A stretch of 64,000 bases of DNA from an uncultured Desulfovibrionaceae bacterium (GCA_964581355.1 CAZOOA010000001.1:46922-110921); one strand, 5' to 3'; positions 4,583-46,335 are shown, counted from the stretch's first letter. Program-made: numbers and translations. Notes: generated by a model from the letters alone, not told the origin.

Positions 4583-4680
4583 TATGGTCAGGGGAGCGTA
4601 GGAAACGTGGAAAAGGAAGCAAGAGAACCGTCCCCATGCTGCCCCTTCCCTGCTTCCCCATACTTCCATGTTTCCGGGCT
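4583..4680 (+). repeat. degenerate copy or fragment of the dispersed hairpin-repeat family (arm-2-like segment ...AGAGAACCGTCCCCATGCTGCC...)
   Basis: Matches the conserved arm (GCGCCAGAACCGTCCCCCTGCTTCGC) of the copies at 20870, 25912, 36416, 36829 and 46178. A second related fragment in inverted orientation lies around 4800-4870. Confidence 0.4.
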
Positions 4681-4918
4681 GTAGGAGCCGGATGAGGCGA
4701 GAGTTTCTCCTCTGATTCCTGGAGGGAGTGGGGATGAAACTCCCGCGCTCTACCGTCACTATCCTTCCACATGCTTTTGTCCATGCTGCCGGGGAGATCT
4801 CCGGAGCCCACCGGGTCTCACCGGGGACAGCGAAGCGTAGCGCGTTTCGCAAGCTCCAGCCCTCTTGACTGATAACAGCTGTCCAAAAACGGTTTTCATC
4901 ATGTGGAAAGAACTGTTG

Positions 4919-4947
4919 TTGCAAAAAGTGAATGGTTGTGTTAAAAT
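4919..4947 (+). promoter_or_regulatory. sigma-A type promoter (TTGCAA-17 bp-TAAAAT) driving the lysine-riboswitch/lysA transcript
   Basis: The -35 hexamer TTGCAA (4919-4924), a 17-bp spacer and the -10 hexamer TAAAAT (4942-4947) are visible directly in the sequence. Confidence 0.5.
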
Positions 4948-4974
4948 ACCTTGCAAATTAAAATTACCTCATCT

Positions 4975-5262
4975 CTTCGAGCCGGGGTGGGGTAGAGGTG
5001 CGGCTGGCAAAGAGTATGTTCGAGAAAAGACGGTCCTTGATGAAACGGACAGAAAGGTGCCGCCGCCGAAGTTTTTGGTCCAAGGCCGGAGGCCAGAAGC
5101 TGGTTTGCCAGTGAATAACTGGCAAACTGTCACCCGTTCGAAAGGCCCTTTTCCCGGGTGGAGCGCTATCTCGCTGTGGGCATTTTTGAGGTTGCTTCTT
5201 GCGGTTTAAAGCGGCTACGGGTTTATCGTTGGTCGCTTTTTTGTTTTAAAATTTCCCTGAGG
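4975..5262 (+). promoter_or_regulatory. lysine riboswitch (L-box) with expression platform upstream of lysA
   Basis: The conserved L-box blocks are present in order: AGAGGTGCG, AAAGAGTATG, GAGAAAAGA, GAAAGGTGCCGCCGCCGAAG and GAGCGCTATCTCGCTG. They are collinear with the B. subtilis lysC leader and lie immediately 5' of lysA. Confidence 0.8.
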
Positions 5263-5272
5263 GGGTGGATGT

Positions 5273-6577
5273 ATGATCATGTCCGGTTCGATGGAAATCA
5301 ATGCAAAAGGGAACCTGGAAATCGGGGGTTGCGATACGGTAGAACTGGCTAAACAGTTCGGGACGCCCCTGTTCGTGATGGATGAAGAACAGATCCGAAA
5401 TAACTGCAGGCAGTATGTGAATGCCTTGAAAAAGCACTACCCGAAGGGGATGGTATTGTTTGCCGGTAAGGCTTTCTTAACCCTGGCCATGACCCGCCTG
5501 GTACACGAGGAAGAAATGGGGTTGGACGTGGTTTCCGGGGGCGAACTTTTTACGGCAGTGAACGCCGGTTTTCCCGTGGAGCGGATTTATTACCACGGAA
5601 ACAACAAGTCGACCCGTGAGTTAGTCGACGCCATTAAGTCCGGGGTGGGCCGGATCGTTGTGGACAGTATCCCGGAACTGGAAGAAATTAAAGAACTGTC
5701 GGCCCAGTTTGCAGAGGGCAAGGTCTCGGTGCTCCTGCGCCTCAAGCCCGGTGTGGAAGCCCATACCCATGAATATATTTCTACAGGGCAGGAGGACTCC
5801 AAGTTCGGCTTTGGCCTAGCGGACGACAGTGCCATGGAGGCGGTGGAGTCCTGCCTGAAAGCTTCAGATTTGATTGACCTGAGAGGATTTCACTGTCATA
5901 TCGGCTCGATGATCTTCCAGCTGGAACCTTTTTCCGTTGCCACCCGGGTGATGGTGGAGTTTATGGACCGGGTCCGGGACAAAACCGGTTTTGTGGCCGA
6001 AGAACTGGATATGGGCGGTGGCTTGGGTATCCGCCACAAGCAGGAAGACGACCCTCCTTCCATTGAGAGGTTCGTGGAAAATATTGCCCTGACGTTGAAA
6101 AGCGCCTGCCAGAAACAGGATTTTCCCCTGCCCGAGTTGATGCTGGAGCCCGGGCGTTCCATTACGGGGGAAGCCGGAGCAACACTTTATACGGTAGGTG
6201 TGATTAAGGATATTCCGGGGATCCGGCGCTATGTTTCCGTTGACGGGGGCATGATGGACAATATCCGGCCGGCTCTTTACAGCGCGAAATATGAAGCAGC
6301 TATCTGCAACAAAATAGGCCAGGAGTCCGGGGAGCTGGTTACGCTGGCCGGGAAAGCCTGCGAGTCCGGGGATATTTTGATCCGGGATATTTATCTGCCG
6401 CCCCTGGAAAGCGGTGATATTGTTGCTGTATTCAGCACAGGCGCCTACTGTTATTCCATGTCCAGCAATTACAACCGGAATCCCCGCCCGGCTGTCGTTT
6501 TTGTCCGTAACGGTGAGCCGAGGATTGTTGTGCGCAGGGAATCGTACGAGGATTTGATTGCGCTGGATGTATTGTAG
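5273..6577 (+). CDS. lysA: diaminopimelate decarboxylase
   Basis: The 434-aa ORF is a PLP-dependent group IV decarboxylase and sits downstream of the L-box. Confidence 0.9.
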   Translation: MIMSGSMEINAKGNLEIGGCDTVELAKQFGTPLFVMDEEQIRNNCRQYVNALKKHYPKGMVLFAGKAFLTLAMTRLVHEEEMGLDVVSGGELFTAVNAGFPVERIYYHGNNKSTRELVDAIKSGVGRIVVDSIPELEEIKELSAQFAEGKVSVLLRLKPGVEAHTHEYISTGQEDSKFGFGLADDSAMEAVESCLKASDLIDLRGFHCHIGSMIFQLEPFSVATRVMVEFMDRVRDKTGFVAEELDMGGGLGIRHKQEDDPPSIERFVENIALTLKSACQKQDFPLPELMLEPGRSITGEAGATLYTVGVIKDIPGIRRYVSVDGGMMDNIRPALYSAKYEAAICNKIGQESGELVTLAGKACESGDILIRDIYLPPLESGDIVAVFSTGAYCYSMSSNYNRNPRPAVVFVRNGEPRIVVRRESYEDLIALDVL

Positions 6578-6630
6578 CGGCCTCTTGGGTTGTGGAGGTT
6601 GGTATTTTTTGACGGAAGGGCGGTAAAAAG

Positions 6631-7479
6631 ATGATATTTACCAAGATGCACGGCCTGGGCAACGATTTTATTGTTGTAGATAACCTGGAAGGGCAGCACA
6701 GTCCGGAAGAGATGGCGAAAAAAGCTCCATCACTCTGCCACAGGCATTTTGGTATCGGTGCAGACGGCCTGGTCCTGCTGAACACTTCACGGGAAGCTCC
6801 TTTTGCCATGCAGATCTTTAACCCCGACGGTAGTGAGGCGGAGATGTGCGGTAATGCCATCCGCTGCCTGGGCAAGTATGTCTGGGACCGGAAGATGATT
6901 AACGGGGACAGGGTTTCCATCCAGACCGGTGCCGGGATTATGGAGTTGGCATTGAATATCCAGGGTTCGGAGGTAAAAGGGATCCGGGTGAACATGGGAC
7001 AGCCGATCCTGGACAGCCAGCAGATTCCCGTAGCAGGTCCTGAGCGAAAAGTGATCGATGAGCCCATTACCGCCGGGGACAAGACCTTTAAGTGCACCGC
7101 AGTAAGTATGGGCAACCCCCACTGCATCATTTTTGTGGACTCCCTGGAAGATATCCCCTGGAAAACATGGGGCCCTTTGCTGGAGAACCATAGCATGTTT
7201 CCCCGGCGGACCAACGTGGAATTTGTAGAAATCCTTGGGCCAGGCGAAGTCCGGGTCAATGTTTGGGAGAGAGGGGCAGGCCCAACTTTGGCCTGCGGTA
7301 CCGGGGCCTGCGCTACAACTGTGGCGGGTGTTATTACAGGGCGCCTGGAAGAAAATGTTGTAGTCCACCTTCCCGGGGGCACCCTGACTATTCAATGGAA
7401 GCAAGGGCAGCCTGTTTATATGGAGGGTCCTGCTGAGGAAGTATACCGGGGGGAAGTCTCTTTGGAGCGCATACAGTAA
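6631..7479 (+). CDS. dapF: diaminopimelate epimerase
   Basis: The 282-aa ORF has the N-terminal MIFTKMHGLGNDF motif and catalytic Cys motifs (CGNA, CGTGACA). Confidence 0.9.
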   Translation: MIFTKMHGLGNDFIVVDNLEGQHSPEEMAKKAPSLCHRHFGIGADGLVLLNTSREAPFAMQIFNPDGSEAEMCGNAIRCLGKYVWDRKMINGDRVSIQTGAGIMELALNIQGSEVKGIRVNMGQPILDSQQIPVAGPERKVIDEPITAGDKTFKCTAVSMGNPHCIIFVDSLEDIPWKTWGPLLENHSMFPRRTNVEFVEILGPGEVRVNVWERGAGPTLACGTGACATTVAGVITGRLEENVVVHLPGGTLTIQWKQGQPVYMEGPAEEVYRGEVSLERIQ

Positions 7480-7706
7480 AAAGACTGTTCTTTCTAATTG
7501 CACTTTGCCCTGGAATAGCGCTTAAATGTTTTGATCCATTAGATATTGAAGCTCGGGCTTCATTGATGTTTGCCCAGAACATAACTTTTGTTGTATATAA
7601 TTCCGCGCGCTTCAGATCACTTTTTTCATCTTTCTGCTGGTAAAGCGGAACATCATAGATGTCTTATGGGTTATTGAAATTATCTTTCTTTAGGAGGGCA
7701 TGCTCT

Positions 7707-8885
7707 ATGAACGAACAAACATCAGAAAGAATTCGCCAGCTACCCCGGTATTTGTTTGCTGAGATCGACAAGAAGATTAAAGAGGCCATGAACAAGGGAG
7801 TCGATGTGATCAAGCTGGGTATCGGCGATCCCGACACCCCGACGCCAGACTATATCATCGAGCGCATGAAGGAAGAAGTGGCCAAGCCCCGCAATCATAC
7901 CTATCCTCCCGATGAAGGGTTGCAGGAATTCAGGGAAGCGGTGGCTGCTTATTACCAGAAAAGGCACAAAGTGGACCTGGACCCCGAGACCGAGGTCCTT
8001 CCCTTAATCGGTTCCAAGGAGGGTATTGCTCACATTGCCTTTTGCTTTACCGATCCCGGTGATGTGAACCTGGTGCCTGATCCCGGGTATCCTGTATATG
8101 GTATCGGGACCAAGTTTGCCGGGGGAGCTCCTCACCTGATGCCCCTGGTCAAAGAAAATGATTTTCTGCCCGTTTTTGACCATATCCCGGAAGAGGCCGC
8201 TCAAAAAAGCAAGCTTTTGTTTTTAAACTACCCCAACAACCCCACTGGCGCTGTTGCCTCCCCGGAGTTTTTCCAGGAAGCGGTGCAGTATGCCAAAAAA
8301 CATAACCTGGTTGTCTGCCATGATGCCGCCTACAGCGAGGTGGCCTTTGACGATTACGAGCCCTTAAGCTTCCTCGAGGTGGACGGGGGCAAGGATGTAG
8401 CCATCGAGTTTGGCTCCCTGGCCAAGACATTTAACATGACCGGGTGGCGGATTGGGTATGCCGTGGGCTGCCGGCAGGCCGTGGAAGCCCTGTACCGGTT
8501 TAAAACCAATGTAGATTCCGGGCTATTCAAGGCCATTCAGTACACAGGGGTGGAGGCGTTGAGCAATCCCAAAATGGAGCCCTTTATCAAGGAACTGCGG
8601 GAAATGTACCGTGAAAGGCGTGATGTGGTGGTCGATGCACTTCAGGAAGCGGGTTGGCCCATTGAAGCGCCCCGGGGCACTTTTTATGTCTGGGCACCTG
8701 TCCCCAAGGGCTACACCTCCCAGGATTTTGTAGCCCACCTGCTGGAAGAGACGGGGGTTGTAGTCACCCCGGGCAAAGGATTTGGTGAGCACGGTGAAGG
8801 ATATTTCCGCATTGCCCTGACCGTGGACAAGAACAGGATGCGTGAAGCCATGGAGCGGATTAAAAACACGGTTCAGTTTCGCTAA
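7707..8885 (+). CDS. dapL: LL-diaminopimelate aminotransferase (DapL-type class I aminotransferase)
   Basis: The N-terminus reads RYLFAEIDKKI...KLGIGDPD and the fold is aminotransferase class I/II. It is flanked by dapF/lysA upstream and asd/lysC downstream. The start was moved to the ATG at 7707, which has a GGAGGG RBS; the ORF-track start is 7659. Confidence 0.7.
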   Translation: MNEQTSERIRQLPRYLFAEIDKKIKEAMNKGVDVIKLGIGDPDTPTPDYIIERMKEEVAKPRNHTYPPDEGLQEFREAVAAYYQKRHKVDLDPETEVLPLIGSKEGIAHIAFCFTDPGDVNLVPDPGYPVYGIGTKFAGGAPHLMPLVKENDFLPVFDHIPEEAAQKSKLLFLNYPNNPTGAVASPEFFQEAVQYAKKHNLVVCHDAAYSEVAFDDYEPLSFLEVDGGKDVAIEFGSLAKTFNMTGWRIGYAVGCRQAVEALYRFKTNVDSGLFKAIQYTGVEALSNPKMEPFIKELREMYRERRDVVVDALQEAGWPIEAPRGTFYVWAPVPKGYTSQDFVAHLLEETGVVVTPGKGFGEHGEGYFRIALTVDKNRMREAMERIKNTVQFR

Positions 8886-8926
8886 AATACGCATAGAATG
8901 AAATATGATCAAAGGGGATGATTTTT

Positions 8927-9946
8927 ATGGCAGGATACAATGTGGCTATCGTCGGCGTAACGGGTAACGTCGGCCAGGTCCTGATTGAAGTGTTGCGGGA
9001 AAGAAACTTTCCCGTGAAGGAATGGAAATTGTTGGCTTCGGCCCGGTCGGCCAACAAGGTGATCAACATTGGCGGGAAGGACTATCCCGTAGAAGAGGCC
9101 AAGCCCGAAGCCTTTGCCGGTGTGGATTTTGCCTTTTTCAGTGCCGGGGGCGATATCAGCAAGGAGTTGGCGCCCGAAGCGGTTAAACAAGGTGCTGTAG
9201 TTGTTGACAACAGCAGTGCTTTCCGCATGGACCCAGAAGTGCCGCTGGTGGTTCCTGAAGTGAACCCTGATGCGGCCCGGAAGCACAAAGGGTTAATCGC
9301 CAACCCCAACTGTTCCACCATCCAGATGGTTGTGGCGCTGCAGCCCCTTCAACAGGCTGCCGGGTTGAAGCGCGTCGTTGTGGCTACGTACCAGTCTGTT
9401 TCCGGTGCCGGGAAGGAAGCCGTGGACGAACTGACAGACCAGAGCCGGGCCATCCTGGATGACCAGGAAGTTGTCAAGGAGCGGATTCCGTTCAAGGGCG
9501 CGCCTAAAAATCACCAGATTGCCTTTAACATGGTTCCACATATTGATGTATTCGAGGAAGACGACTATACCAAGGAAGAAATGAAAATGATCCGGGAAAC
9601 GCGTAAAATCATGGGGCTTCCTGAACTGCCTATCACTGCCACCACGGTGCGGGTCCCGGTGTTTAACGGCCACAGCGAGGCGGTGAACGTGGAGCTGAAT
9701 GCAGCGCTATCGCCGGAAAAAGCCCGGGAACTTTTTTCCTCGGCCCCCGGAATTCTTGTTTGGGATAACCCGGAAGAACTGCTTTATCCCATGCCCATTG
9801 ACACAGAAAACCGGGATGAAGTTTTCATCGGGCGCATTCGCGTTGACCGCTCTGTTCAGCATGGGCTCAATATGTGGGTTGTTTCGGACAATATTCGTAA
9901 AGGTGCAGCCACAAATTCCATCCAAATCGCGGAACTGTTAATTTAA
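8927..9946 (+). CDS. asd: aspartate-semialdehyde dehydrogenase
   Basis: The N-terminus has an NAD-binding motif (VAIVGVTGNVG) and an active-site Cys region (NPNCSTI). The probable start is the ATG at 8927 after an AAAGGGGA RBS. Confidence 0.9.
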   Translation: MAGYNVAIVGVTGNVGQVLIEVLRERNFPVKEWKLLASARSANKVINIGGKDYPVEEAKPEAFAGVDFAFFSAGGDISKELAPEAVKQGAVVVDNSSAFRMDPEVPLVVPEVNPDAARKHKGLIANPNCSTIQMVVALQPLQQAAGLKRVVVATYQSVSGAGKEAVDELTDQSRAILDDQEVVKERIPFKGAPKNHQIAFNMVPHIDVFEEDDYTKEEMKMIRETRKIMGLPELPITATTVRVPVFNGHSEAVNVELNAALSPEKARELFSSAPGILVWDNPEELLYPMPIDTENRDEVFIGRIRVDRSVQHGLNMWVVSDNIRKGAATNSIQIAELLI

Positions 9947-10001
9947 GCTTATATCCAGCAAGGAATAATCGAATTTTTTGGGAGACTGGGGTGACGTAAA
10001 C

Positions 10002-11228: not shown

Positions 11229-11250
11229 TCCAAGCGCGCGAAAATAATGC

Positions 11251-11280
11251 TTGACAAAAGCTTACAGTACAGTTTACAAT
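11251..11280 (+). promoter_or_regulatory. sigma-A promoter (TTGACA-18 bp-TACAAT) for the T-box leader/aro operon
   Basis: TTGACA at 11251-11256 and TACAAT at 11275-11280. Confidence 0.55.
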
Positions 11281-11282
11281 GT

Positions 11283-11622
11283 TTGTTACATTAGATAGTG
11301 TGACTTCCATGATGGGGAGAAGTAAGTAGCCCTGGATGGCTGCAGAGAGCCGGGCAAGCTGCGAACCGGTGCTTTCCAGCTACCGAAATACACCCCGAAG
11401 AAGCAGACCGAAAGCACGCATTGCAGGCAGCATTTCCTGTGTTTGCGGCCAGTAGGCTCTGACGGGAACTCCAGCCGTTAAAATGGAGGGGATATAAGGC
11501 CTGGGAGGCTCAGGTCCGTATCCTGAAACGAGGTGGGGCAGGCAATGAACGTTGGCTGCTCAACCAGGGTGGTACCGCGTGAAGCTAAAGCTTCCGTCCC
11601 TGAGGGACGGAAGCTTTTTTGG
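11283..11622 (+). promoter_or_regulatory. T-box riboswitch leader; candidate Tyr (UAC) specifier
   Basis: The invariant T-box sequence AGGGTGGTACCGCG is at 11566-11579. It is immediately followed by an intrinsic terminator (AAAGCTTCCGTCCC-TGA-GGGACGGAAGCTTTTTTGG). The specifier assignment UAC (GAAATACACC, around 11383) is an inference only. Confidence 0.75.
11587..11622 (+). terminator. T-box leader intrinsic terminator (attenuator)
   Basis: A perfect 14-bp inverted repeat (AAGCTTCCGTCCC / GGGACGGAAGCTT) is followed by a U-run. Confidence 0.8.
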
Positions 11623-11816
11623 TTCTGCGCCCGACATGGGCACGTCTGCCGGGAGTGGCACCATCTCCGCTGGGAAGGTGCCGGGTGCTGAAAACCGGTA
11701 TTTTGAAGGGAAGCAATTTTTTTCATCTCTGTTATGGCTTGTTCGTGTTATGGCTTGTCCATCGTAATGAATTGTCTTCAAAGGGGTAAAATTATACAAC
11801 TGGGAGGTTTTTTAAA

Positions 11817-13935: not shown

Positions 13936-14076
13936 CGAGGCTAACGAGATCTAATAAAGAATAGAAAAAGAGTTGGCGGCCTCCTCCCGGGGGAGAATAC
14001 GGGGTTTCTATGTGTAAACGCTGGTTTTTAGGGTCTAAGGATAAAGGAAACCAGCAGATTATAATCTAGGGGGAAC

Positions 14077-20856: not shown

Positions 20857-20869
20857 TATTTTATCATTT

Positions 20870-21015
20870 GTAATTGCTCAGCACTATTTTAAGCGAAGCT
20901 TTGGGGACTGTTTTGGTACTCCCGGAGTGAAGAGGAGGACCGACAGGAAAAGCTCCAGGACCATCCACCTGCTTCGCGGCAAGTCACACAATCAGATCAA
21001 GGCTGAGCCAGATGC
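20870..21015 (+). mobile_element. MITE-like hairpin element copy B (146 bp) inserted between hisA and hisF; flanked by a perfect 8-bp direct repeat TATCATTT
   Basis: The termini GTAATTGCTCAGC...GGCTGAGCCAGATGC form imperfect TIRs. The internal arms ...GGGGACTGTTTTGG... and ...GGACCATCCACCTGCTTCGCGG flank the conserved core GGAGGACCGACAGGAAAAGC. TATCATTT occurs at 20862-20869 and again at 21016-21023. Confidence 0.65.
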
Positions 21016-21091
21016 TATCATTTTCAACTATACTTGCTGGTTTACCGCAAGGCTTTTCAAGATCATATTTGTTTACTGGAGGGAGGATCTG

Positions 21092-25837: not shown

Positions 25838-25911
25838 GTATTCCCGGAAGATTGTATATTTTTCCTTTGCACCGGGCAAAAAAAAGGATAAAATAAATGT
25901 AAGGTTTTATC

Positions 25912-26020
25912 CAACTGCTCAGGGCTTTTGTAAGCGAGGTTGTGGAACAGTTCGGTCGCTCCCAAGGAAGCAGGGAAGCATGAGAACCGTCCCCTTGCTT
26001 CCTGTGTGCAGTTGTGTTAC
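25912..26020 (+). repeat. hairpin-repeat family copy C (short variant, about 109 bp) between aroB and the HD-domain gene
   Basis: Runs CAACTGCTCAGGGCTTTTGTAAGCGAGG...GAGAACCGTCCCCTTGCTTCC...GCAGTTGTGTTAC. It aligns with copies B, E and F but has a shorter loop. The flanking TTTT-rich direct repeats are only weak. Confidence 0.55.
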
Positions 26021-34972: not shown

Positions 34973-36364
34973 CTATTCCTGAAAATAGCCCAGGATGGCA
35001 TCTTTTAAAGCGTTGGCTGCCAGTTCGTGGGTCTTTTCTGTTTTAAGTATTTTGGCATCGACTGCATTGGAGAGAAAAGCCAACTCAACCAGTGCAGAAG
35101 GAGTGGTAGACTCTTTTAAGATAGTAAACTCTGCCTCTTTAACACCCAGGCAGGGGAGTTGGAATGATCGGGTTAACTCCTTTTGCAGGCTGGAGGCAAG
35201 CTCGTAGCTTTTTTCACTGTTGGTGTCCCCCGGGTGATAAAAGGTTTCGGTGCCGGAGACAAAATGGTTGGGGTGGGCATTGGCATGGATGCTGACCAAA
35301 ATATCTGCCCCGGCTTCAGACTCGATCTCCAGCCGTTGGTCCATGGATAAGTCTTTGTCCCTATCTCGGGTCAGGACCACCCGGGCGCCTTTTTCCTTTA
35401 GCTTTTCTTCCAGCAGCAGGGACACGGACAGGCACACTTCTTTTTCTTTTAGCCCGTTGATCCCGGTAGCGCCGCCGTCCCTTCCGCCATGTCCCGGGTC
35501 CAGGACAATGGTTTTACCCTGAAGATCCCGGTTTTTGTCCGGGTTTGAGCTTTGATGATCCTCCCGGAAGGAGAGGATTTCTTTTTGTTCCGTGTAATCG
35601 CTGCTGACCCAACCTTCTGCCCCTCCCGGAAGGAGTACATTGTGCCAACCCTTTTCCCGATCCAGGATTAACAGGTGGTTGCCCTGGAAGGCCTGTTCTG
35701 TTTGCTCCCGGTCCAGCCCCGGGCCGGAGCGTACCCGGAGTATTTCTGGCACTACTTTGGCCAGTTGAAAATAGGTTTCCGGTTCGGTTTTTTCTTTTTC
35801 CTGCGGTTTGTCTTTTATAACCCGGATGTATTGTTCAGAGATCCAGCCGCTTTCTTCCCCAGCCTTTACTTTCAACCAGCCTTCTTTTTCTTCTTTAACT
35901 GTTGCTTCTTTTTTTTGCGGCAATGTCCCGATCTGGTCGTAATCTGTCCCCGGTCCTGTCCTCATATTTAACAGGTTGATTTCAACTTCAGCTTCAACTT
36001 CCAAAAGGTCTGGCAGCTTGTCCTTCAGTTCCGTATTATAACTGGTGTAGGAAGCATCGACCCACCCGGAGTGCCCGCCTTCCAGTGCAACCAGGATCCA
36101 ATCCTGGTCATAAGAGTAAACTTCCAAAGACTGTCCTGATGAAACCTGCTTGATTTGCTCATAAGAAGTTGAAGGTCCGGTTCTGACGTTTAACAGGGAA
36201 GCTTCAACCTGGACGGCAGGCTGATCGAAAGTGGCTTCAGCCGACAGCGGGGCCGGGCAGAAAAGTAGCAGCAAAAATGATGTCATCAACAGGCCAATAA
36301 TGAAAGAGGTGCCGCCGGACCTGTTGAATTTCGCCTCTTTTGTATTCCTGGCATACTTGAACAT
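34973..36364 (-). CDS. N-acetylmuramoyl-L-alanine amidase (Amidase_3) with signal peptide and three SH3b domains (YrvJ-like)
   Basis: The C-terminus has the Amidase_3 motifs (DPGHGGRDGGA...HANA) and the N-terminal region has three SH3b repeats. The start at 36364 is preceded by an AGGAGG RBS. The ORF-track extension to 36496 is unlikely to be translated. Confidence 0.8.
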   Translation of the reverse strand: MFKYARNTKEAKFNRSGGTSFIIGLLMTSFLLLLFCPAPLSAEATFDQPAVQVEASLLNVRTGPSTSYEQIKQVSSGQSLEVYSYDQDWILVALEGGHSGWVDASYTSYNTELKDKLPDLLEVEAEVEINLLNMRTGPGTDYDQIGTLPQKKEATVKEEKEGWLKVKAGEESGWISEQYIRVIKDKPQEKEKTEPETYFQLAKVVPEILRVRSGPGLDREQTEQAFQGNHLLILDREKGWHNVLLPGGAEGWVSSDYTEQKEILSFREDHQSSNPDKNRDLQGKTIVLDPGHGGRDGGATGINGLKEKEVCLSVSLLLEEKLKEKGARVVLTRDRDKDLSMDQRLEIESEAGADILVSIHANAHPNHFVSGTETFYHPGDTNSEKSYELASSLQKELTRSFQLPCLGVKEAEFTILKESTTPSALVELAFLSNAVDAKILKTEKTHELAANALKDAILGYFQE

Positions 36365-36415
36365 AATCGCTAGCCTCCTGTTTGGATGAAAAGAAACGGG
36401 GATGAAAAGAATTTT

Positions 36416-36606
36416 TAGCTGATCAGCGCTATTTACAAGCGAACCTGTTGGGACCGTTCCGGCGCCTCTGGGACGCAGCACAGGCTTCAGGGACATTTCT
36501 CTGGTATTTAGCGGTGTTCCTTCATTTTTTGAATAACGGGAAAGCGCCAGTATTGCCCCACTGCTTCGCTGCGTGTCGCGTAATCACACCAGGGCGGAGC
36601 AGTAAC
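36416..36606 (+). repeat. hairpin-repeat family copy D (long-loop variant, about 191 bp) in the amidase/hisS divergent intergenic region
   Basis: Runs TAGCTGATCAGCGCTATTTACAAGCGAACC-TGTTGGGACCGTTCCGGCGCC...GGGAAAGCGCCAGTATTGCCCCACTGCTTCGCTGCG...GGGCGGAGCAGTAAC. It has the same orientation as copy E, which lies 222 bp downstream. Confidence 0.55.
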
Positions 36607-36759
36607 AAGGTTTTTATGCTTGACCTCAAAAAGTTGTCTCTTGGAAACCTGGAGGCGGCCTGCATGAATTTTAGCATATTTTAACTAATTTGCAAAGGCG
36701 ACAATTTGCCAGAAATATAGCTGCTGCGGACAAAAACCTATTCAGGAAAGATTCATAAG

Positions 36760-36789
36760 TTGACAAGGCCTGGTTAATTAGCTTAAAAT
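36760..36789 (+). promoter_or_regulatory. sigma-A promoter (TTGACA-17 bp-TTAAAAT) for hisS-aspS
   Basis: TTGACA at 36760-36765 and TAAAAT at 36784-36789. The transcript would carry repeat copy E in its 5' UTR. Confidence 0.5.
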
Positions 36790-36828
36790 CAACTTGTATC
36801 TGAACAAAAACGAAACGAATCACGGAGG

Positions 36829-36970
36829 TAATTGCTCAGAGCTATTTGCAAGTGAAGCCGTGGGGACGGTTCTGGCGCTTCCGGAGCGTAGCGGAGGACC
36901 GACAGGGAAAGCGACAGAACTGTCCCCCTGCTTCGCGGTGTGTGGTGTAGTAAGTGGGCTGAGCAGTTAC
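36829..36970 (+). mobile_element. MITE-like hairpin element copy E (142 bp) inserted at the hisS ribosome-binding site; flanked by 9-bp direct repeats TCACGGAGG / TCATGGAGG
   Basis: The TIR is TAATTGCTCAG...CTGAGCAGTTAC. The internal 25-bp imperfect stem is GAAGCCGTGGGGACGGTTCTGGCGC / GCGACAGAACTGTCCCCCTGCTTC, around the core GGAGGACCGACAGGGAAAGC. The downstream direct repeat supplies the GGAGG RBS 7 nt before the hisS ATG. Confidence 0.65.
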
Positions 36971-36986
36971 TCATGGAGGCTATCCG

Positions 36987-38267
36987 ATGAAGAATAAAGC
37001 ACCGCGCGGGACAAGAGATGTGCTGCCGGCAGACATGCCTGCCTGGCATTACCTGGAGAACGTGTTTCAAAAGCTTTGCCATGTTTACGGTTATTCCGAG
37101 ATTCGCACACCTATTTTTGAAGACGTGGAAGTTTTTACGCGAAGTGTGGGTGAGGAGAGCGATGTGGTGGCAAAAGAGATGTATACCTTCACCGATCGGG
37201 GCGGGAGGCATTTGGCTTTAAGGCCTGAGTGTACAGCCGGAGTGGCCAGGGCCTTTATCGAACATGGTTTTCATAATCAACCCCAGCCGGTAAAGCTCTA
37301 TTACCTGGGACCTATGTTCCGCTATGACCGTCCCCAGGCCGGTAGACAGCGGCAGTTTTACCAGATGGGAATCGAACTTTTTGGGTCAACGGCTCCTGCA
37401 GCCGATGTAGAGGTGATCAAGTTTACTTATGATTTTTTTCGACAGGTCGGGTTTGATCGGTTGGAGTTACATATTAACAGTGTTGGGTGTAGAAGCTGTC
37501 GGCCGACGTACCAGGAGCAGTTAAAAACTGCTATCCAGCCTTTCGCCTCCAAACTGTGTGCCGATTGTCGAAAACGCCTTGAAACCAACCCTCTCCGCTT
37601 GCTGGACTGCAAATCACCCGGCTGCCAGGAAGCATCAACCGATGCTCCCAAGATAGACCAAAGCTTATGCCAGCCCTGCCAGTCTCACTACCAGGAAGTA
37701 AAAAGCAAGCTGGACTTACTGGGCATTGATTACAAACCCGACCCATACCTGGTCAGGGGACTGGATTATTATACCCATACGGCATTTGAATTTGTTTCGA
37801 CCAAGCTGGGGACCCAGAGCTCCCTGGGAGGAGGAGGCCGTTACGATAATTTGGTGGAAGTCTGCGGCGGAAACCCGACCCCGGGCGTAGGGATGGCTGT
37901 CGGTGTGGAGCGCATTTTGCTGGCCATGGGGAAGGAAGGGATCTCCCTGCCGGCAACTGGCCTGGAAGGCGTTTATGTCGCTGCGGGAACTTCTGCCCTG
38001 CAGGAAGAAGGGACAAAGCTTTTATACCGCCTTCGCGGTGCTGGGATCAGGGCGGAAACCGATTATATGGGGCGCAGCCTTAAGTCTATGATGAAAAATG
38101 CCCATCGCGGCAGGTTCCGTTATGTGGTCATCCTGGATCAGGAAACAGAAGACCAGGGGACCTGGAAAATCAGGGATATGGGCAGCGGAGAGCAGCAGAA
38201 GTATCCTCCTGGCGCGGCGGAGCAACTATTGCTGGATGAACGGGAACAGGATGGTGCTTTAAATTAA
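36987..38267 (+). CDS. hisS: histidine--tRNA ligase
   Basis: The 426-aa ORF has class II aaRS motifs and the N-terminus MKNKAPRGTRDVLP. Confidence 0.9.
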   Translation: MKNKAPRGTRDVLPADMPAWHYLENVFQKLCHVYGYSEIRTPIFEDVEVFTRSVGEESDVVAKEMYTFTDRGGRHLALRPECTAGVARAFIEHGFHNQPQPVKLYYLGPMFRYDRPQAGRQRQFYQMGIELFGSTAPAADVEVIKFTYDFFRQVGFDRLELHINSVGCRSCRPTYQEQLKTAIQPFASKLCADCRKRLETNPLRLLDCKSPGCQEASTDAPKIDQSLCQPCQSHYQEVKSKLDLLGIDYKPDPYLVRGLDYYTHTAFEFVSTKLGTQSSLGGGGRYDNLVEVCGGNPTPGVGMAVGVERILLAMGKEGISLPATGLEGVYVAAGTSALQEEGTKLLYRLRGAGIRAETDYMGRSLKSMMKNAHRGRFRYVVILDQETEDQGTWKIRDMGSGEQQKYPPGAAEQLLLDEREQDGALN

Positions 38268-38311
38268 ACAGGGAACATGGAAGGGGGACGCAGCCAAAAG
38301 GCTGGAAACCA

Positions 38312-40099: not shown

Positions 40100-40156
40100 A
40101 CAGGCTGTGGGAGCAGGGATGGCGCTGCAGGAAATGATTCCAAGTATTATTTCCCC

Positions 40157-40185
40157 TTGCATCAATGCGGAAAGTGTGCTATCAT
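40157..40185 (+). promoter_or_regulatory. sigma-A promoter (TTGCAT-17 bp-TGcTATCAT) for a roughly 330-nt mgtE leader
   Basis: The -35 hexamer is at 40157-40162 and an extended -10 is at 40177-40185. Confidence 0.45.
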
Positions 40186-40515
40186 AAAATTGCGAAAAAT
40201 GCAAGGGATATTCCCTACTGTGTGCGTGTAAAATCGCGAATGTTTTGAGCTAACACTAACGAAATGGGAGCCTGGACTTTACATGCGGCGCAGAAGCCTT
40301 GGTCGGAACGAGGACCTGCAAAGCATGTAAGAGGGCACCCACCTTGAGAGAGGGCGTTCAAAACAAGCGGTCCACGGCACAGTGGGGTTATTTTATTTGT
40401 GCCTGTTTTTACGATCAAGCCAGCAGAAAGCCCACGGCTTTAGCCGAGGGATGAATACTTAATAGACAGTTGACTTGATGGTTGAGTCGGGTATTTTGTT
40501 GCCGGGGGTGAGGAA

Positions 40516-41844
40516 GTGGCTGCACGACCCATTCGGGAAACATTAACGGAAATATTATGGCAGGTAAAAGAAGGGACTCATCCCAGCGACCTGGCAGAAC
40601 TGGTGGATGAGTTGGGCGATGAACAGAAAAAAGAACTGTTTGGCCTTCTTTCCGATGAAGATGCCGCTTTAATCATCCAGGAGATGGAGGATTTTGACCA
40701 GGTTTCTCTTCTGCGGCTTTTAACCCGACACAGGGCATCAGCAATTTTAAGGGAAATGTCTGCTGACGACGCCACAGACCTGGTGGGGGAGCTGCCGGAA
40801 GAAGAAGCCAGGGAGCTTCTTGCCTTGATTGATGAGGAAGCAGAAGAAATCAAGGGGCTGTTAAAATACCCCGAAGATACAGCCGGCGGACTCATGACAA
40901 CGGAATTTATTGCCCTGCCGGAAGACATACCTGTAGAGGAAGCTATTGCCCGGCTTCGTGAAGTCGCTCCGGATGCGGAAATTGTTTATTATGTTTATGT
41001 GGTCGATGTCCAGACCAAGCTTAGCGGGGTCCTTTCCTTGAGAGATCTGATTGCCGCAGACGATGGAACACTGCTTCGCGATATAATGTTCCGTAACATT
41101 ATCAGCGTCCAGGTTGAGATGGACCAGGAAGAAGTGGCCCGGGTTGTCTCCCGTTATGACCTGTTGGCTGTCCCCGTGGTTGACGGGGATAACCGCCTGC
41201 TGGGGATCATTACTGTAGACGATATCCTCGATGTTATTGAAGAAGAGGCTACGGAAGACATTTATAGATTGACCGGGACCGGCGAAGTAACCGGGGTGGA
41301 CATCCTGCAGGCCTCTGTCTTTGGGCTGGCTCGCAAAAGGATGCCCTGGTTGTTAATCAGCTTAATGGGGGGGTTACTATCCGGGAGTGTTATCGGTGCT
41401 TTTGAAAACACCCTGGAGACCATAGTGATTCTGGCGGTGTTTATCCCTGTTATTATGGATATGGGCGGAAACGTGGGGACCCAGTCTTCCACTCTGTTTG
41501 TCCGGGGCCTGGCTACGGGAGAAATTGGGCCTGCCGAGGTCTGGCGCTACTTTTTCCGGGAGACCCGGGTAGGGTTGACGATTGGACTTGTAAACGGTAT
41601 TTTTGTCTCTGTGGTCGCTACCCTTTGGCAGGGAATGCCCCTACTGGGGGTAGTTGTGGGTGTAGCCATGTTCAGCACCATTACCCTGGCAGCGTTGATC
41701 GGCACCCTGGTGCCCATGTTTTTCAATCATTACGGTATTGACCCGGCCATTACAGCAGGTCCTTTTGTGACTACGATCAAAGATGTGACAGGTCTGCTTA
41801 TATATTTCTGGATAGCCACGGCCTTCATGGAACACCTGATTTAA
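40516..41844 (+). CDS. mgtE: magnesium transporter MgtE
   Basis: Has an MgtE N-domain, tandem CBS domains and a C-terminal 5-TM MgtE domain. GTG start after a GGGGGTGAGGAA RBS. Confidence 0.85.
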   Translation: MAARPIRETLTEILWQVKEGTHPSDLAELVDELGDEQKKELFGLLSDEDAALIIQEMEDFDQVSLLRLLTRHRASAILREMSADDATDLVGELPEEEARELLALIDEEAEEIKGLLKYPEDTAGGLMTTEFIALPEDIPVEEAIARLREVAPDAEIVYYVYVVDVQTKLSGVLSLRDLIAADDGTLLRDIMFRNIISVQVEMDQEEVARVVSRYDLLAVPVVDGDNRLLGIITVDDILDVIEEEATEDIYRLTGTGEVTGVDILQASVFGLARKRMPWLLISLMGGLLSGSVIGAFENTLETIVILAVFIPVIMDMGGNVGTQSSTLFVRGLATGEIGPAEVWRYFFRETRVGLTIGLVNGIFVSVVATLWQGMPLLGVVVGVAMFSTITLAALIGTLVPMFFNHYGIDPAITAGPFVTTIKDVTGLLIYFWIATAFMEHLI

Positions 41845-41946
41845 CCCGGTCTAACCAACCGATATTTTGTTGTAAACAGGCGGTTCATGGTTCCTGATGA
41901 GGCGGGATTTCTTTTTTTCCCCCTCTTTTCGAAAAAAAAGATAAAA

Positions 41947-41990
41947 AGAGAAAGGTTGTAACAAAAACCTTTCTCTTTTTTTTTTATTTT
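41947..41990 (+). terminator. intrinsic terminator downstream of mgtE
   Basis: AGAGAAAGGTT-GTAACAAAA-AACCTTTCTCT is followed by a run of more than 10 T residues. Confidence 0.75.
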
Positions 41991-42111
41991 TTTAATTTTT
42001 TAGTGGCAGGAATTTTAAAAATGGGGTAGAATAAATATAAAAAGTGGTTTAAAGTGGTTTGAAGTGGAGAAGCAGGCTGGCCAATTCATTGCGAAGTGGA
42101 GTTAAGCTGTT

Positions 42112-42543
42112 ATGTTGATGGGAGAATACGTACATACTTTGGACAAGAAAGGACGGGTGATTGTCCCGTCCCGCTTTCGCGATGAACTGGGTGAGCGCTT
42201 TGTGATCACCCGGGGGCTGGATCGCTGTCTTTTCCTTTATCCACGCAGGGAATGGGCTAACCTGGAAAACCGGTTAAAAGAACTTCCGCTGGCCAAAGCC
42301 GAGGCCCGAAAGTTCATGCGCTTCTTTTTTTCCGGCGCTTCAGAAGTGGAAATCGATAAACAGGGCCGTATTTTAATTCCCCCACAGCTGCGCGAACACG
42401 CCCATGTGCAGAAAGAAGTTGTTATTATCGGGGTTTCCAACCGGGCCGAGATTTGGAGCAAGGAAAACTGGGAAGAGTACAGCAATGAATCGGATCTCTC
42501 TTTTGAACAGGTAGCTGAAAAAATGATTGATTTCCAGTTTTAA
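42112..42543 (+). CDS. mraZ: division/cell wall cluster transcriptional regulator MraZ
   Basis: The 143-aa ORF has tandem MraZ repeats ([26 protein letters not shown]). Confidence 0.9.
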
Positions 42544-42564
42544 ACTTGCATGAGGAGGCAGGAA

Positions 42565-43560
42565 ATGGGTCCGGGAAACCAGGGAGAACGTTTTCAGCAT
42601 GTCCCGGTATTGTTAACTAAAGTGCTCAGGATTTTAGACCCAACTCCTGGAGATATCATCCTGGATGCGACCTTGGGCGGGGGAGGGCACTCGGAAGCAA
42701 TCCTGGAAAAGGTGACCCCAGGCGGCAAAGTAATCGGCCTGGACCTGGACAAGGATGCCATCGAAGCAGCCAAAGAGCGTCTTAAACCCTTTGGCAGTGC
42801 TTTTATCGCCATCCAGGATAACTTTGCCAACCTGCAAAAAATCTTACCGGACCTGGAGTTGGACGGTGTTGATGGGGTTTTAATGGACCTTGGAGTATCT
42901 TCTTATCAACTGGATAGCTCCCAGCGGGGATTTTCTTACCAGAGAGATGTTTTTCTCGACATGCGTATGAGCGGCGAGGCCCAGCAGACCGCTTCCGATC
43001 TTTTGAATACTTTATCCAGGCAGAAGCTTGCCCGAATTTTTAAACAATATGGAGAAGAGAAGTGGGCGGACAGGATTGCCGCTTTCGTGGAAAAGTATCG
43101 TACACAAAAAGGTTCGCTGACCCACAGCGGGCAGTTGGTGGAAGTCATTAAAAATGCCATACCTGCTGCTTCGCGCAGAAAGGGTGGACATCCGGCAAAA
43201 CGTGTTTTCCAGGCTTTAAGGATTGCCGTAAACCGGGAACTGGAAAACCTGGAAGCCGGCCTGGAGCAGGGCATTGAATGGTTAAAACCCGGTGGTCGGA
43301 TTGTGGTGATTTCTTACCATTCCCTGGAAGATGAAATTGTAAAAAAAAGGTTGCAGGAACGAGCGAACCCGTGTAACTGCCCAGCAAAATTCCCGGTTTG
43401 CCAGTGCGGCCTTACGCCGGTGATTAAGCTGACAGCCCCAAAAGTTATTTTTCCTGGAGACGAAGAAGTCAAAATCAACCCCAGGGCACGAAGTGCCAGG
43501 TTGAGAGCTGCTGAAAAGCTTGAGAACAGAGGAAAAAGTTCTAATACGATCGGCAGGTGA
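42565..43560 (+). CDS. rsmH: 16S rRNA (cytosine1402-N4)-methyltransferase
   Basis: Has FQHVPVLL and SAM-binding motifs. The start at 42565 follows a GAGGAGG RBS. Confidence 0.9.
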   Translation: MGPGNQGERFQHVPVLLTKVLRILDPTPGDIILDATLGGGGHSEAILEKVTPGGKVIGLDLDKDAIEAAKERLKPFGSAFIAIQDNFANLQKILPDLELDGVDGVLMDLGVSSYQLDSSQRGFSYQRDVFLDMRMSGEAQQTASDLLNTLSRQKLARIFKQYGEEKWADRIAAFVEKYRTQKGSLTHSGQLVEVIKNAIPAASRRKGGHPAKRVFQALRIAVNRELENLEAGLEQGIEWLKPGGRIVVISYHSLEDEIVKKRLQERANPCNCPAKFPVCQCGLTPVIKLTAPKVIFPGDEEVKINPRARSARLRAAEKLENRGKSSNTIGR

Positions 43561-43967
43561 ATAAGGTGTTAGCAACAAAGGAAAAACCAAAAGCAGGATT
43601 TGTCCCCCAACAAAGACCGTCCCAGGATCGCAATAGCCGCACCGGGGGAAAGGTTTCTTCCACTCCACGGTATTCATTTGCAGGAAATCCTGCGGAGAGC
43701 CTGCTGCTGTGTGTTTTAATCTTTTTTTTAATCGCTGTAAGTATCGGTCTTATTGCTCAATACAGCCGGGTTATTGCTGTGAACTACCAGGTTCAGCAGG
43801 TAGACCGGGAAATCTCTCAGCTGCAAGAAGAAAAAGAGCGCCTGGCCCTGGAAGTGCGGAGTTTAAGTTCCCTGGAACGGATTGAAACCATTGCAGTAAA
43901 CGAGTTGGGGTTACAGTACCCGGAACAAAAACAATGGCTGAGATTATCAGCCAGGGAAGAGCAATAG
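43557..43967 (+). CDS. ftsL: cell division protein FtsL
   Basis: Has a single TM helix followed by a coiled-coil (ISQLQEEKERLALEV). Its GTG start overlaps the rsmH stop. Confidence 0.7.
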   Translation: MNKVLATKEKPKAGFVPQQRPSQDRNSRTGGKVSSTPRYSFAGNPAESLLLCVLIFFLIAVSIGLIAQYSRVIAVNYQVQQVDREISQLQEEKERLALEVRSLSSLERIETIAVNELGLQYPEQKQWLRLSAREEQ

Positions 43968-43979
43968 CCAGGTGAGAAT

Positions 43980-46094
43980 ATGGCAAAACGAAAAGTTTCC
44001 AGTATGCAATTGAAAAAACGTCTTCTTTTTGTGTTTTTCTTTACGGTTATTTTGATGCTGGCCCTGGTATTACGTTTGGGTTGGATTCAATTCGTGATGG
44101 CAGAAGAGTTACAAGCCAAAGCGTGGGAGCAATGGAATCGCAGCATTCCGGCTCCTTCTTCCAGGGGTGATATTTATGACAGAGACGGTCAACTTCTGGC
44201 CGGCAGCGCGACAGTAGAAACCGTTGTAGCCATTCCCCCCCAGGTGAATGACCCGGCTTTTACAGCCAGAACTCTGGCTCCTGTGCTGGATATGAGCCAG
44301 GAGCGAATTTTTGAGCTGTTAACCCAGGAAAGAGCTGCTGTTTACCTGAAACGCAGGGTTGATGAAGAGGTGGCTGACGAAGTCCGAATACTCAACCTGC
44401 CCGGTATCACTTTTACCCAGGAGCCGAAGCGGTATTACCCTAATAGCAATTTGCTTTCGCAACTGCTGGGCTTTGTAGGGACGGACCAGGGTTGGGCCGG
44501 GCTGGAAGTATATTATGAAGAAGTTCTGGAAGGTCGAGACGGGAGTATCATGTACCCCACGGATAACAGGGGACGGGAAATACCCGGGGTTCGCCGTTTT
44601 ATCCCTCCCAAAGAAGGCAAGGACCTCCATCTTACGATTGATGAAACCATTCAATTCATCGTGGAAAGGGAGTTATCCCGGGCTATGGTGGAGTATGATC
44701 CCAAGCGGGTGATGGCCCTGGCTGTCAACCCCCAGTCGGGAGAAGTCCTGGCATCTGCCTCAAAACCGGATTTCGATCCCAACCGCTACAATGAATACAA
44801 CAATGACTACTGGCGCCTTTTTCCTGTCACAGATACGTTCGAACCCGGGTCAACCTTTAAACTCATTACCCTGGCAGCTGCCATGGAAGAGAATCTTTTT
44901 GACGAAAACGAACCTTTTTACTGCTCCGGTTCTGTCAAAGTGGCGGGACAGACTATCCGCTGCTGGACCTCCCATAAGGGAGGGCATGGTTCCATCGATT
45001 TTGCAGAAAGTGTCTATCATTCCTGCAACCCCGCTTTTATTGAACTGGGAGAGAAGCTGGGTGCGGAGCAATTGTTCGACTACATAAGAGCGTTTGGTTT
45101 TGGCTTGCCTACCGGTGTTGATTATCCCGGAGAAGGGCAGGGCCAAATATTCCGGCCGGAACAAATCGGTCCAGTTGAGCTGGCTACCTCTTCTTTTGGG
45201 CAGGGTCTTTCTGTTACACCCCTGCAGCAGGTGATGGCTGTATCCGCATTTGCCAACGGCGGTCGTTTGGTGCGTCCTTATTTTGTCCAGGAAATCACTG
45301 ATGGTGAAGGGGAAACCTTGTTTCAGCGGGAGCCGGAAGTTATCCGCCAGGTAATCTCAGCAAAAACAGCTGAGCGGGTGACCCGGACCATGGAAGGAGT
45401 TGTTGAAGAGGGAAGCGGAGTCAATGCCGGAATTGAAGGGTACCGGGTTGCCGGTAAAACAGGGACGGCGCAAAAAGTGTCTGAAGGAAGCTACGTGGCG
45501 GGTGAATATGTCCTTTCTTTTATTGGCTTCGCGCCTGTTGAAGATCCACAGGTTTTACTCTATGTGGCCATAGATGGGGCGAAGCGCGGACCCCAGTGGG
45601 GCTCCCAGGTTAGTGCGCCGCTTTTCCATTCAATTATGAAAGATGCGCTTTCATACCTGGAGATCCCTCCTTCCCAGATTCCGGAAGAAGATAATGACCA
45701 GGAGCCAGAGCGATTGGTAAACGTCCCTGATTTAAAAGGGCTTACGATGGATGAAGCCGGGGCGCTTTTGGATACCAAGGGGCTGCTGGTGCGACTGGTA
45801 GGCAATGATGGCGTGATCGTGGATCAAACCCCAAAAGCAGGGGCTCGTGTTCCCATGCAAACAAACATCGTCATTTACCTGGATGACCTGTTCAGGGAAG
45901 AGGCCGCAAATCAAATCGTTTTACCGGATTTGAAAGGGATGACGGTAAAAGAGGCCGGTGAAATCCTGGGTCATATCGGGTTAAAGATGGAACGGAAAGG
46001 ATCAGGAATTGTTTTTGACCAGGAACCTGCGCCAGGGACGTTAATTGAGCAGGATTCTGTGGTTCAGGTTCGCTTTTCGTCGCCCCTGGACTAA
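43980..46094 (+). CDS. class B penicillin-binding protein of the FtsI/PBP2B/SpoVD family with two C-terminal PASTA domains
   Basis: The 704-aa ORF has an N-terminal TM helix, a dimerisation domain, a transpeptidase domain (STFK, SCN, KTGT) and two C-terminal PASTA repeats. Confidence 0.85.
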   Translation: MAKRKVSSMQLKKRLLFVFFFTVILMLALVLRLGWIQFVMAEELQAKAWEQWNRSIPAPSSRGDIYDRDGQLLAGSATVETVVAIPPQVNDPAFTARTLAPVLDMSQERIFELLTQERAAVYLKRRVDEEVADEVRILNLPGITFTQEPKRYYPNSNLLSQLLGFVGTDQGWAGLEVYYEEVLEGRDGSIMYPTDNRGREIPGVRRFIPPKEGKDLHLTIDETIQFIVERELSRAMVEYDPKRVMALAVNPQSGEVLASASKPDFDPNRYNEYNNDYWRLFPVTDTFEPGSTFKLITLAAAMEENLFDENEPFYCSGSVKVAGQTIRCWTSHKGGHGSIDFAESVYHSCNPAFIELGEKLGAEQLFDYIRAFGFGLPTGVDYPGEGQGQIFRPEQIGPVELATSSFGQGLSVTPLQQVMAVSAFANGGRLVRPYFVQEITDGEGETLFQREPEVIRQVISAKTAERVTRTMEGVVEEGSGVNAGIEGYRVAGKTGTAQKVSEGSYVAGEYVLSFIGFAPVEDPQVLLYVAIDGAKRGPQWGSQVSAPLFHSIMKDALSYLEIPPSQIPEEDNDQEPERLVNVPDLKGLTMDEAGALLDTKGLLVRLVGNDGVIVDQTPKAGARVPMQTNIVIYLDDLFREEAANQIVLPDLKGMTVKEAGEILGHIGLKMERKGSGIVFDQEPAPGTLIEQDSVVQVRFSSPLD

Positions 46095-46177
46095 ACTTCT
46101 TTGGTTAAACCGGTATTTGTATCCTGCTTGGTGTAAATACTAGTAGCCTGTGAAGGAGAAAAAAGATACAATGAATG

Positions 46178-46335
46178 TAATTGCTCAGGAGATGTATTGT
46201 TCAGATCTATTTATAAGCTAGGCTGTGAGGACTGTTCGTGCGTTTCCTGAGTAAAGCGAAGGACCAAATGGGAAAGCGCCAGAACCGTCCCCCTGCTTCG
46301 CAAGGTATGAAGCAAAGTTGGGCTGAAAGCTATTG
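46178..46335 (+). mobile_element. MITE-like hairpin element copy F (about 158 bp) between the class B PBP gene and murE in the dcw cluster
   Basis: Runs TAATTGCTCAGG...(internal partial duplication TTGTTCAGATCTATTTATAAGC)...GGGAAAGCGCCAGAACCGTCCCCCTGCTTCGC...GGGCTGAAAGCTATTG. It is flanked by ATGAAT / ATGAAC direct repeats (imperfect). Confidence 0.55.

Follow-up and report, generated by a model that had tools for sequence, protein, structure and literature searches.

Miniature transposable elements of ISBst12/IS66 type with a REPIN-like core in an uncultured Desulfovibrionaceae bacterium

We analyzed a stretch of 64,000 nucleotides from an uncultured Desulfovibrionaceae bacterium (GCA_964581355.1, CAZOOA010000001.1:46922-110921), and this whole stretch is referred to as the window in the following. 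In our analysis, the genome was regarded as one of the Bacillota. The window harbors five hairpin elements, B to F, which are very probably decaying copies of one miniature inverted-repeat transposable element (MITE), derived from the ISBst12 group of the IS66 insertion sequence family and mobilized in trans by a DDE transposase. An earlier note on this DNA had proposed either a MITE or a REP/BOX-like structured RNA family. The MITE was supported by 8-bp target-site duplications, by termini of the ISBst12 group (IS66 family), and by empty orthologous sites in relatives. The second proposal was correct in one part, as the inner hairpin is a pair of repetitive extragenic palindromic (REP) units of a type found in Bacillota, and was not supported in the other, a structured RNA, by Rfam searches or covariation.

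Copies in the window, their ends and their insertion sites

The five copies are collinear, all lie on the plus strand, and show pairwise identities of 70%–82%. A profile built from them retrieved only B–F at high score from the 64-kb window (nhmmer E-values from 6e-45 to 5e-28). A degenerate 27-nt pattern of the 3' arm matched exactly in B–F and with two mismatches in a further region, A, and these six matches compare with 0.00 expected from shuffled sequences. The five places and the shared sequence named in the earlier note, and also its view that the occurrences are far more than chance, were confirmed by these results. The boundaries given there were right to within 1–2 nt and were refined for C, D, E, and F to the values listed below. 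The blocks of the MAFFT alignment follow each other in the order TTGCTCAG, CTATTT, AAGCGAAGC, the two arms, and GGGCTGAGCAGTTAC. The previously described end repeats TAATTGCTCAG / CTGAGCAGTTAC, the inner stem of about 25 bp, and the core GGAGGACCGACAGGRAAAGC in the loops of B and E were all found. The elements have no coding capacity, and open reading frames (ORFs) overlapping them are spurious extensions only. The copies, their flanking 8-mers, and the parts of the best-preserved copy are as follows (UTR, untranslated region; PBP, penicillin-binding protein).

20870-21015, plus strand: MITE copy B, 146 bp, in the hisA-hisF spacer; nhmmer E-value 8e-41; left end GTAATTGCTCAGCAC, right end degenerate (GGCTGAGCCAGATGC)
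20862-20869 and 21016-21023, no strand: duplication of B, TATCATTT on both sides, 8/8
25911-26020, plus strand: MITE copy C, 110 bp, in the spacer that separates aroB from an HD-domain gene preceding secDF; nhmmer E-value 5e-28
Flanks of C: GGTTTTAT on the left, TTTTTGAC on the right, 4/8
36415-36606, plus strand: MITE copy D, 192 bp, in the spacer of two divergent genes, an amidase gene (minus strand) and hisS; nhmmer E-value 4e-36
36407-36414 and 36607-36614, no strand: flanking 8-mers of D, AAGAATTT and AAGGTTTT, 6/8
36828-36970, plus strand: MITE copy E, 143 bp, in the hisS 5' UTR, the best-preserved copy; nhmmer E-value 6e-45
36828-36842, plus strand: left terminal repeat of E, GTAATTGCTCAGAGC
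about 36854-36882, plus strand: 5' REP arm of E
about 36905-36936, plus strand: 3' REP arm of E
36956-36970, plus strand: right terminal repeat of E, GGGCTGAGCAGTTAC
36820-36827 and 36971-36978, no strand: duplication of E, TCACGGAG and TCATGGAG, 7/8
46177-46333, plus strand: MITE copy F, 157 bp, in the spacer between a PBP gene and murE; nhmmer E-value 2e-41; left end intact, right end degenerate
Flanks of F: CAATGAAT on the left, TGATGAAC on the right, 5/8 with the right boundary at 46333 and 1/8 in the resampling test
about 4593-4642, plus strand: fragment A, 24-48 nt, a single REP-type unit, GGAAGCAAGAGAACCGTCCCCATGCTGCC, located downstream of an RseC-like gene; weak nhmmer hit at 4593-4640, E-value 0.0012, profile positions 71-115 only

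When the copies were aligned on E (5' end GTAATTGCTCAG, 3' end GGGCTGAGCAGTTAC), the 8 nt outside each boundary turned out to be direct repeats. Counted conservatively over the five copies, 26 of 40 positions match, compared to a null that averaged 9.9 and never exceeded 22 in 20,000 resamplings. The effect of an insertion is visible at hisS, where the Shine-Dalgarno sequence ACGGAGG is present twice in the window, once on each side of E. In relative L123 (HisS 71% identical, gene order from relA to murE kept), the TTGACA-N17/18-TAAAAT promoter of hisS is the same, and ACGGAGG is found once, six bases ahead of the start codon. We concluded that the insertion of E duplicated the Shine-Dalgarno sequence of hisS.

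The terminal inverted repeats of E, GTAATTGCTCAG and CTGAGCAGTTAC, can form 11 Watson-Crick pairs and one G-T pair. Such ends can be recognized in B, D, and F; those of C are degenerate. In the ISfinder descriptions, ends starting with GTAA together with an 8-bp duplication are the signature of the IS66 family. We delimited four plasmid-borne elements, each with one IS66-family transposase gene and a duplication of 8/8. On pHTA426, a gene annotated as 'IS66-like element ISGka4 family transposase' lies inside a 1.6-kb element with the ends GTATCTATTCAGCCC / GTAACTATTCAGCCC and the duplication GACGAGTT on each side. The other three were found by tblastn on Geobacillus thermoleovorans pLDW-1 (1613 bp, end GTAACTATTCAGCC, duplication ATTTTCAT), Bacillus thuringiensis pBMB0231 (about 1.6 kb, end GTAACTACTCAGCT, duplication AATTTATC), and Bacillus cereus pMLY1.2 (about 1.6 kb, duplication AAAAATAT). 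ISDge4 of Deinococcus geothermalis, which belongs to the ISBst12 group, terminates in the repeats GTGACTACTCAGCA / GTAACTGCTCAGCA, with CCTCGATG as its 8-bp direct repeat (PMC12898284). Copy E has the left end GTAATTGCTCAGAGC and, read inward, the right end GTAACTGCTCAGCCC; the latter is identical to the terminal repeat of ISDge4 at 13 of 14 positions and to that of the pHTA426 element at 13 of 15. Terminal inverted repeats of the form GTAAYTRYTCAGCY and the 8-bp duplication are shared with the ISBst12 group, which includes ISBst12 of Geobacillus stearothermophilus, while the interior beyond the terminal repeats is unrelated to the compared insertion sequences of this group. These have a size of about 1.6 kb and one DDE transposase ORF, whereas the window elements measure 110–192 bp and contain no gene. 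Since they lack a transposase ORF, the elements are derivatives (MITEs) and not insertion sequences.

Relatives of the bacterium have empty sites. Nothing resembling D, E, or F was found at the orthologous places in L123, in which the PBP-murE spacer measures about 100 nt and neither the amidase gene nor D is present at that position. In relative L140/L141 (HisF 87% identical, syntenic over 20 kb), the spacer between hisA and hisF has 40 nt vs. about 235 nt in the window. There was no match to the element profile anywhere in L140/L141, even at an E-value of 10, and this includes the site of C. The earlier note had named the presence of the same sequence at every orthologous site as an argument for conserved cis-elements; these relatives lack the elements. 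The gene absent from L123 encodes an SH3-repeat N-acetylmuramoyl-L-alanine amidase (34973–36364, minus strand) and lies between dtd and hisS; D is located upstream of it in antisense orientation.

All copies are intergenic, as had been claimed, and their neighbors are unrelated: hisA/hisF, aroB/HD-domain gene-secDF, amidase gene/hisS, and PBP gene/murE, and for A the RseC-like gene and a lysine riboswitch-lysA unit. Judged by sequence, E looks recent and intact; B has a perfect duplication and a mutated right end, and C, D, and F are more degraded. In C the ends are degenerate and the 3' arm comes close to a canonical REP unit (GGAAGCATGAGAACCGTCCCCTTGCTTCC), and the loop of D is larger by about 50 nt. 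In copy F, the left end is partly repeated in tandem by an internal duplication of 16 nt (46177–46205; GTAATTGCTCAG-GAGATG-TATTGTTCAG).

Further copies were found neither with the end patterns nor in the 7 kb past the right end of the window. The ENA contig k141_877533 (163 kb) is identical to the window, and contigs of GCA_003555305.1 and of a second ENA assembly match it at 99.9% identity. Two short Logan contigs of the same organism (L121 and L122), from independent short-read assemblies, start inside E at 36898, which is typical of assembly breaks at repeats and suggests further near-identical copies elsewhere in the genome.

A degenerate region at 4583–4870 had been counted as a sixth member. 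Only about 4593–4642 of it is related to the elements, and only to the 3' arm, and MITE ends are not recognizable there. We ruled out that region A is a truncated full copy, as its local alignment to E exceeded shuffled controls over 24 nt only. The remainder (4643–4870), which extends from the solo REP unit toward the lysine riboswitch, does not resemble the elements.

The inner REP pair and RAYT genes in other Bacillota

The inner hairpin consists of two inverted copies of a conserved 29-nt REP unit, GGAAGCAnG-AGAACCGTCCC-CnTGCTTCC, and the arms of E read GAAGCCGTGGGGACGGTTCTGGCGCTTCC and GGGAAAGCGACAGAACTGTCCCCCTGCTTC. The unit, G-GAAGCA-N-G-A-GAACCGTCCCC-N-TGCTTC-C, is nearly invariant among 233 distinct copies. 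A conserved fold of the REP stem was rejected, since the one pair that varies is complementary in just 49% of the distinct units; it is the REP sequence that is conserved and not the fold.

When one genome per species was scanned with the pattern of the 3' arm, at least 117 stretches matched, with about 2 matches expected by chance (estimate). The range of taxa carrying the unit is to be taken as a minimum, and it derives from a sample selected by pattern. Among the matches listed were Pelotomaculum and other Peptococcaceae, Syntrophomonadaceae, Desulfosporosinus, Dethiobacter, Oscillospiraceae, Ruminiclostridium, and many Bacillaceae including Neobacillus, Niallia, Rossellomorea, and Mesobacillus. 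Only the inner part, about profile positions 37–117, is common to the window elements and these other genomes. There the REP units are solo or form inverted pairs, mostly 43–44 nt apart; 216 are intergenic vs. 11 genic, and up to 17 core motifs are present per 8 kb. The orientation of solo units relative to the flanking genes showed no bias (43 vs. 32), and an excess was seen only downstream of genes or between convergent genes. The window contains six REP units, five of them inside the MITEs. Genuine-looking REP pairs were also seen in contigs binned as an Actinomycetota metagenome-assembled genome, and one pattern match in such a genome of Desulfovibrio (L019 4406–4554, L030 1085–1191, L093); these may be due to binning contamination, horizontal transfer, or chance.

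An all-vs-all comparison of the ORFs of REP-rich loci revealed one recurrent family that is not a housekeeping family. It has a Y1_Tnp (IS200-like) domain and reaches 78–84.5 bits on the NCBIfam model 'REP-associated tyrosine transposase' (RAYT; cut-off 80). Its only relative in the PDB is TnpA-REP of E. coli (4ER8), and the alignment spans the HUH motif and the region of the catalytic tyrosine. These RAYT-like genes are flanked by inverted REP units, with GGGACGGTTC upstream and GAACCGTCCC 1–25 nt past the stop codon. Bracketed genes are present in loci L018 (two genes), L025, L068, L103, L115, L147 (e.g., 5001–5780), L149, and L151. In the reciprocal test, homologs were chosen by protein similarity alone, and three of three were bracketed (Geosporobacter ferrireducens, Alkaliphilus peptidifermentans, and Peptococcaceae BICA1-8). 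The databases already label these proteins RayT. We concluded that the REP-bracketed Y1 genes represent the REP/RAYT ('REPtron') organization. For the cognate REP of Bacillota, we found no Rfam family and no paper in the literature searched, nor any paper there on REP/RAYT in Bacillota, and full-text matches to the core sequence were chance primers only. In Anaerobacterium chartisolvens (L018), two RAYT copies (196–1200 and 3897–4706) lie 3.7 kb apart and are 99.6% identical over 227 residues. From its sequence this pair looks like a recent duplication in the style of insertion sequences, unlike the usual single-copy RAYTs.

Tentatively, the window elements might be a chimera and as such a potential substrate of two machineries, the IS66/ISBst12 DDE transposase and a RAYT. 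Their core would then reveal an apparently undescribed system of RAYTs and of REP doublets forming hairpins (REPINs), with the core GGGACGGTTC, across Bacilli, Clostridia, Peptococcaceae, Syntrophomonadaceae, Dethiobacter, and Desulfosporosinus. We regard this extended interpretation as possible, with the odds rather against it.

Mode of multiplication and competing explanations

Since the duplications lie outside ends of IS66 type, we infer that an ISBst12-group DDE transposase is the responsible enzyme. It would bind the terminal inverted repeats of 14–15 bp (GTAAYTGCTCAGnnC), and insertion at a staggered cut followed by repair would create the 8-bp target-site duplication; the duplications themselves are observed. 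Between the ends there is no gene, and a REPIN-like module of two inverted 29-nt units makes up the long inner hairpin. The outer ends, the short linkers, and the REP pair follow each other in one order in all copies, and we concluded that this composite arose once and then multiplied as a whole.

A number of observations weigh against this explanation. C and D have degenerate terminal repeats, and the duplications flanking C and F are poor. Neither an ISBst12-type transposase gene nor a RAYT gene was detected in the 64-kb window, where tblastn gave no hit, or in the 7 kb past its right end. The outer ends were not found in the other genomes, plasmids, or phages searched: neither 72,556 plasmids nor 50,697 phages gave a BLAST match to E. 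In scans of viral contigs the REP arm had 0 matches and the 20-mer of the left end had 4 (about 3–4 expected by chance, estimate), which were accompanied by neither further similarity nor a transposase. Three near-identical strains carry every copy they cover, and no insertion polymorphism was seen. The relatives with empty sites are different species, so that loss of the element is possible at single sites. The copy count covers the window and the adjacent 7 kb, and this genome was not among the matches listed in the genome scan. Furthermore, the explanation does not account for the presence of a REP pair between ends of IS66 type.

The core of the elements also allows a different explanation, namely that they are REPINs copied by a RAYT-type single-strand tyrosine transposase and that the outer ends are lineage-specific REPIN flanks and not transposase-binding ends. 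We consider this improbable. It would account for a core that is the REP pair of the family bracketing RAYT genes in other Bacillota, for the nearly canonical 3' arm of C and F, and for the solo unit A in the window. However, the 8-bp duplications lie directly outside the outer ends and not beside the REP arms, and Y1 (IS200/IS605-type) transposases leave no target duplication. Furthermore, the outer ends agree base for base with the terminal repeats of IS66/ISBst12, no RAYT was present in the 71 kb, and apart from these elements hardly any REP units are present in this part of the genome or in its relatives. Because the duplications flank DDE-type ends, the mobile unit is the composite MITE and not a REPIN.

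A still less likely explanation is that the copies, in their operon-internal and 5' UTR positions, represent a conserved structured RNA that acts in cis (leader, riboswitch, processing site, or stabilizer) and is selected at the RNA level. All copies are on the coding strand of transcription units, which would suit an RNA function; the same orientation as the surrounding genes, as stated in the earlier note, applies to four to five copies, D lies in a divergent spacer, and the trend is not significant (two-sided p of about 0.06). Canonical REP units elsewhere have no bias in relation to transcription, the downstream genes are functionally unrelated, and the orthologous spacers of relatives lack the element.

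Folding gave a similar picture. The hairpin of E in the hisS 5' UTR is very stable (-72.6 kcal/mol, z of -6.6 vs. shuffled sequences), and its fold is stronger than that of the minus strand (-54.3 kcal/mol). In contrast, B, C, D, and F were no more stable than shuffled sequences (z from -1.2 to +0.6). The architecture of E is adopted by B and C, partly by F, and not by D, so that the single hairpin proposed for each copy held for B, C, and E and only in part for F. RNAalifold of the five copies gave an unfavorable covariation term (+5.4), double changes in 4 of 43 pairs, and many broken pairs, which argues for a decaying palindromic DNA element and not for an RNA fold under selection.

At gathering threshold, the only Rfam matches in the window were a lysine riboswitch and a 6S RNA. 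With relaxed thresholds, element E and six REP-rich loci gave chance miRNA-like hairpins and a c-di-AMP riboswitch elsewhere, and no family for the elements. The lysine riboswitch (4985–5176, 106.8 bits) is located upstream of lysA. The 6S RNA (40209–40392, 96.9 bits) lies downstream of aspS, and this position is kept in L123, L125, L126, and L128. A T-box in the hisS leader was ruled out for the window (36700–36990) and also for L123 (3900–4045); a more distant relative, L128 (54% identity), has one before hisS (9691–9932).

In the MITE explanation, the copies lie in intergenic spacers inside transcription units and are probably co-transcribed; B (his operon) and E (hisS leader) are almost certainly transcribed. 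A strong promoter-like site with 11/12 matches is located at 36760–36789, and E lies between it and the hisS ribosome-binding site. Any effect of the MITE copies on mRNA stability or translation is speculative and would be a side effect, not a selected RNA function. A possible case is E, as its hairpin of -72 kcal/mol would form 1 nt ahead of the ribosome-binding site of hisS that was duplicated.

Segmental duplication of one locus, which the earlier note had also considered, or chance low-complexity palindromes can be dismissed with near certainty: D and E are separated by just 220 nt, but homology among the copies ends sharply at the element boundaries with unrelated flanks, the pattern matches far exceed the shuffles (six vs. 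0.00), and the elements come with duplications and terminal repeats of their own.

Relation to known systems

For annotation, our results mean that the five hairpins in the his operon, in the hisS leader, and in the mur cluster are best labeled as MITE insertions and not pursued as riboswitches or small RNAs. The insertion of E in the hisS leader represents a natural test case for the tolerance of such insertions. The elements also provide a non-autonomous derivative of the little-studied ISBst12 group; in the literature searched, we found no paper on a MITE derived from IS66/ISBst12.

With the REPIN/RAYT systems (E. coli TnpA-REP, 4ER8; Pseudomonas REPINs) the elements share two inverted short palindromic units that give a long hairpin. 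In other Bacillota the likeness extends to extragenic, multicopy units that flank a single-domain HUH/Y1 gene in inverted orientation. REPIN-RAYT systems have so far been studied almost only in Proteobacteria. The Bacillota unit differs from the known systems in being unrelated to the catalogued GTAG-/CGTC-headed REPs and in having its loop as the most conserved part, and the window copies differ in sitting between DDE-type ends with target duplications. A survey of the GTAG-/CGTC-headed REP families makes no mention of Firmicutes (PMC3733652). The conserved REP core GGGACGGTTC/GAACCGTCCC offers a defined DNA substrate for the biochemistry of Gram-positive RAYTs. If the interpretation as a chimera and as a new REPIN-RAYT system is true, there would be a large, sequence-conserved Gram-positive branch that is able to hitch-hike on DDE-type MITEs.

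Several MITEs of other bacteria are comparable to the window elements. The Correia elements of Neisseria, RUP/BOX of Streptococcus pneumoniae, and bcr1 of the Bacillus cereus group have 100–200 bp, are non-coding, and possess terminal inverted repeats and target duplications. Like the window elements, they are intergenic or co-transcribed and able to fold as long RNA hairpins. They differ in the parent insertion sequence family and in the length of the duplication (e.g., TA for Correia and RUP), and a relationship in sequence is not expected. We know of no REP pair in Correia, RUP/BOX, or bcr1. We concluded that the elements of the window are a new MITE family of ISBst12/IS66 type with a REPIN-like core. 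They are otherwise essentially an ordinary mobile element, and the REPIN-like core inside DDE-type ends is the one twist.

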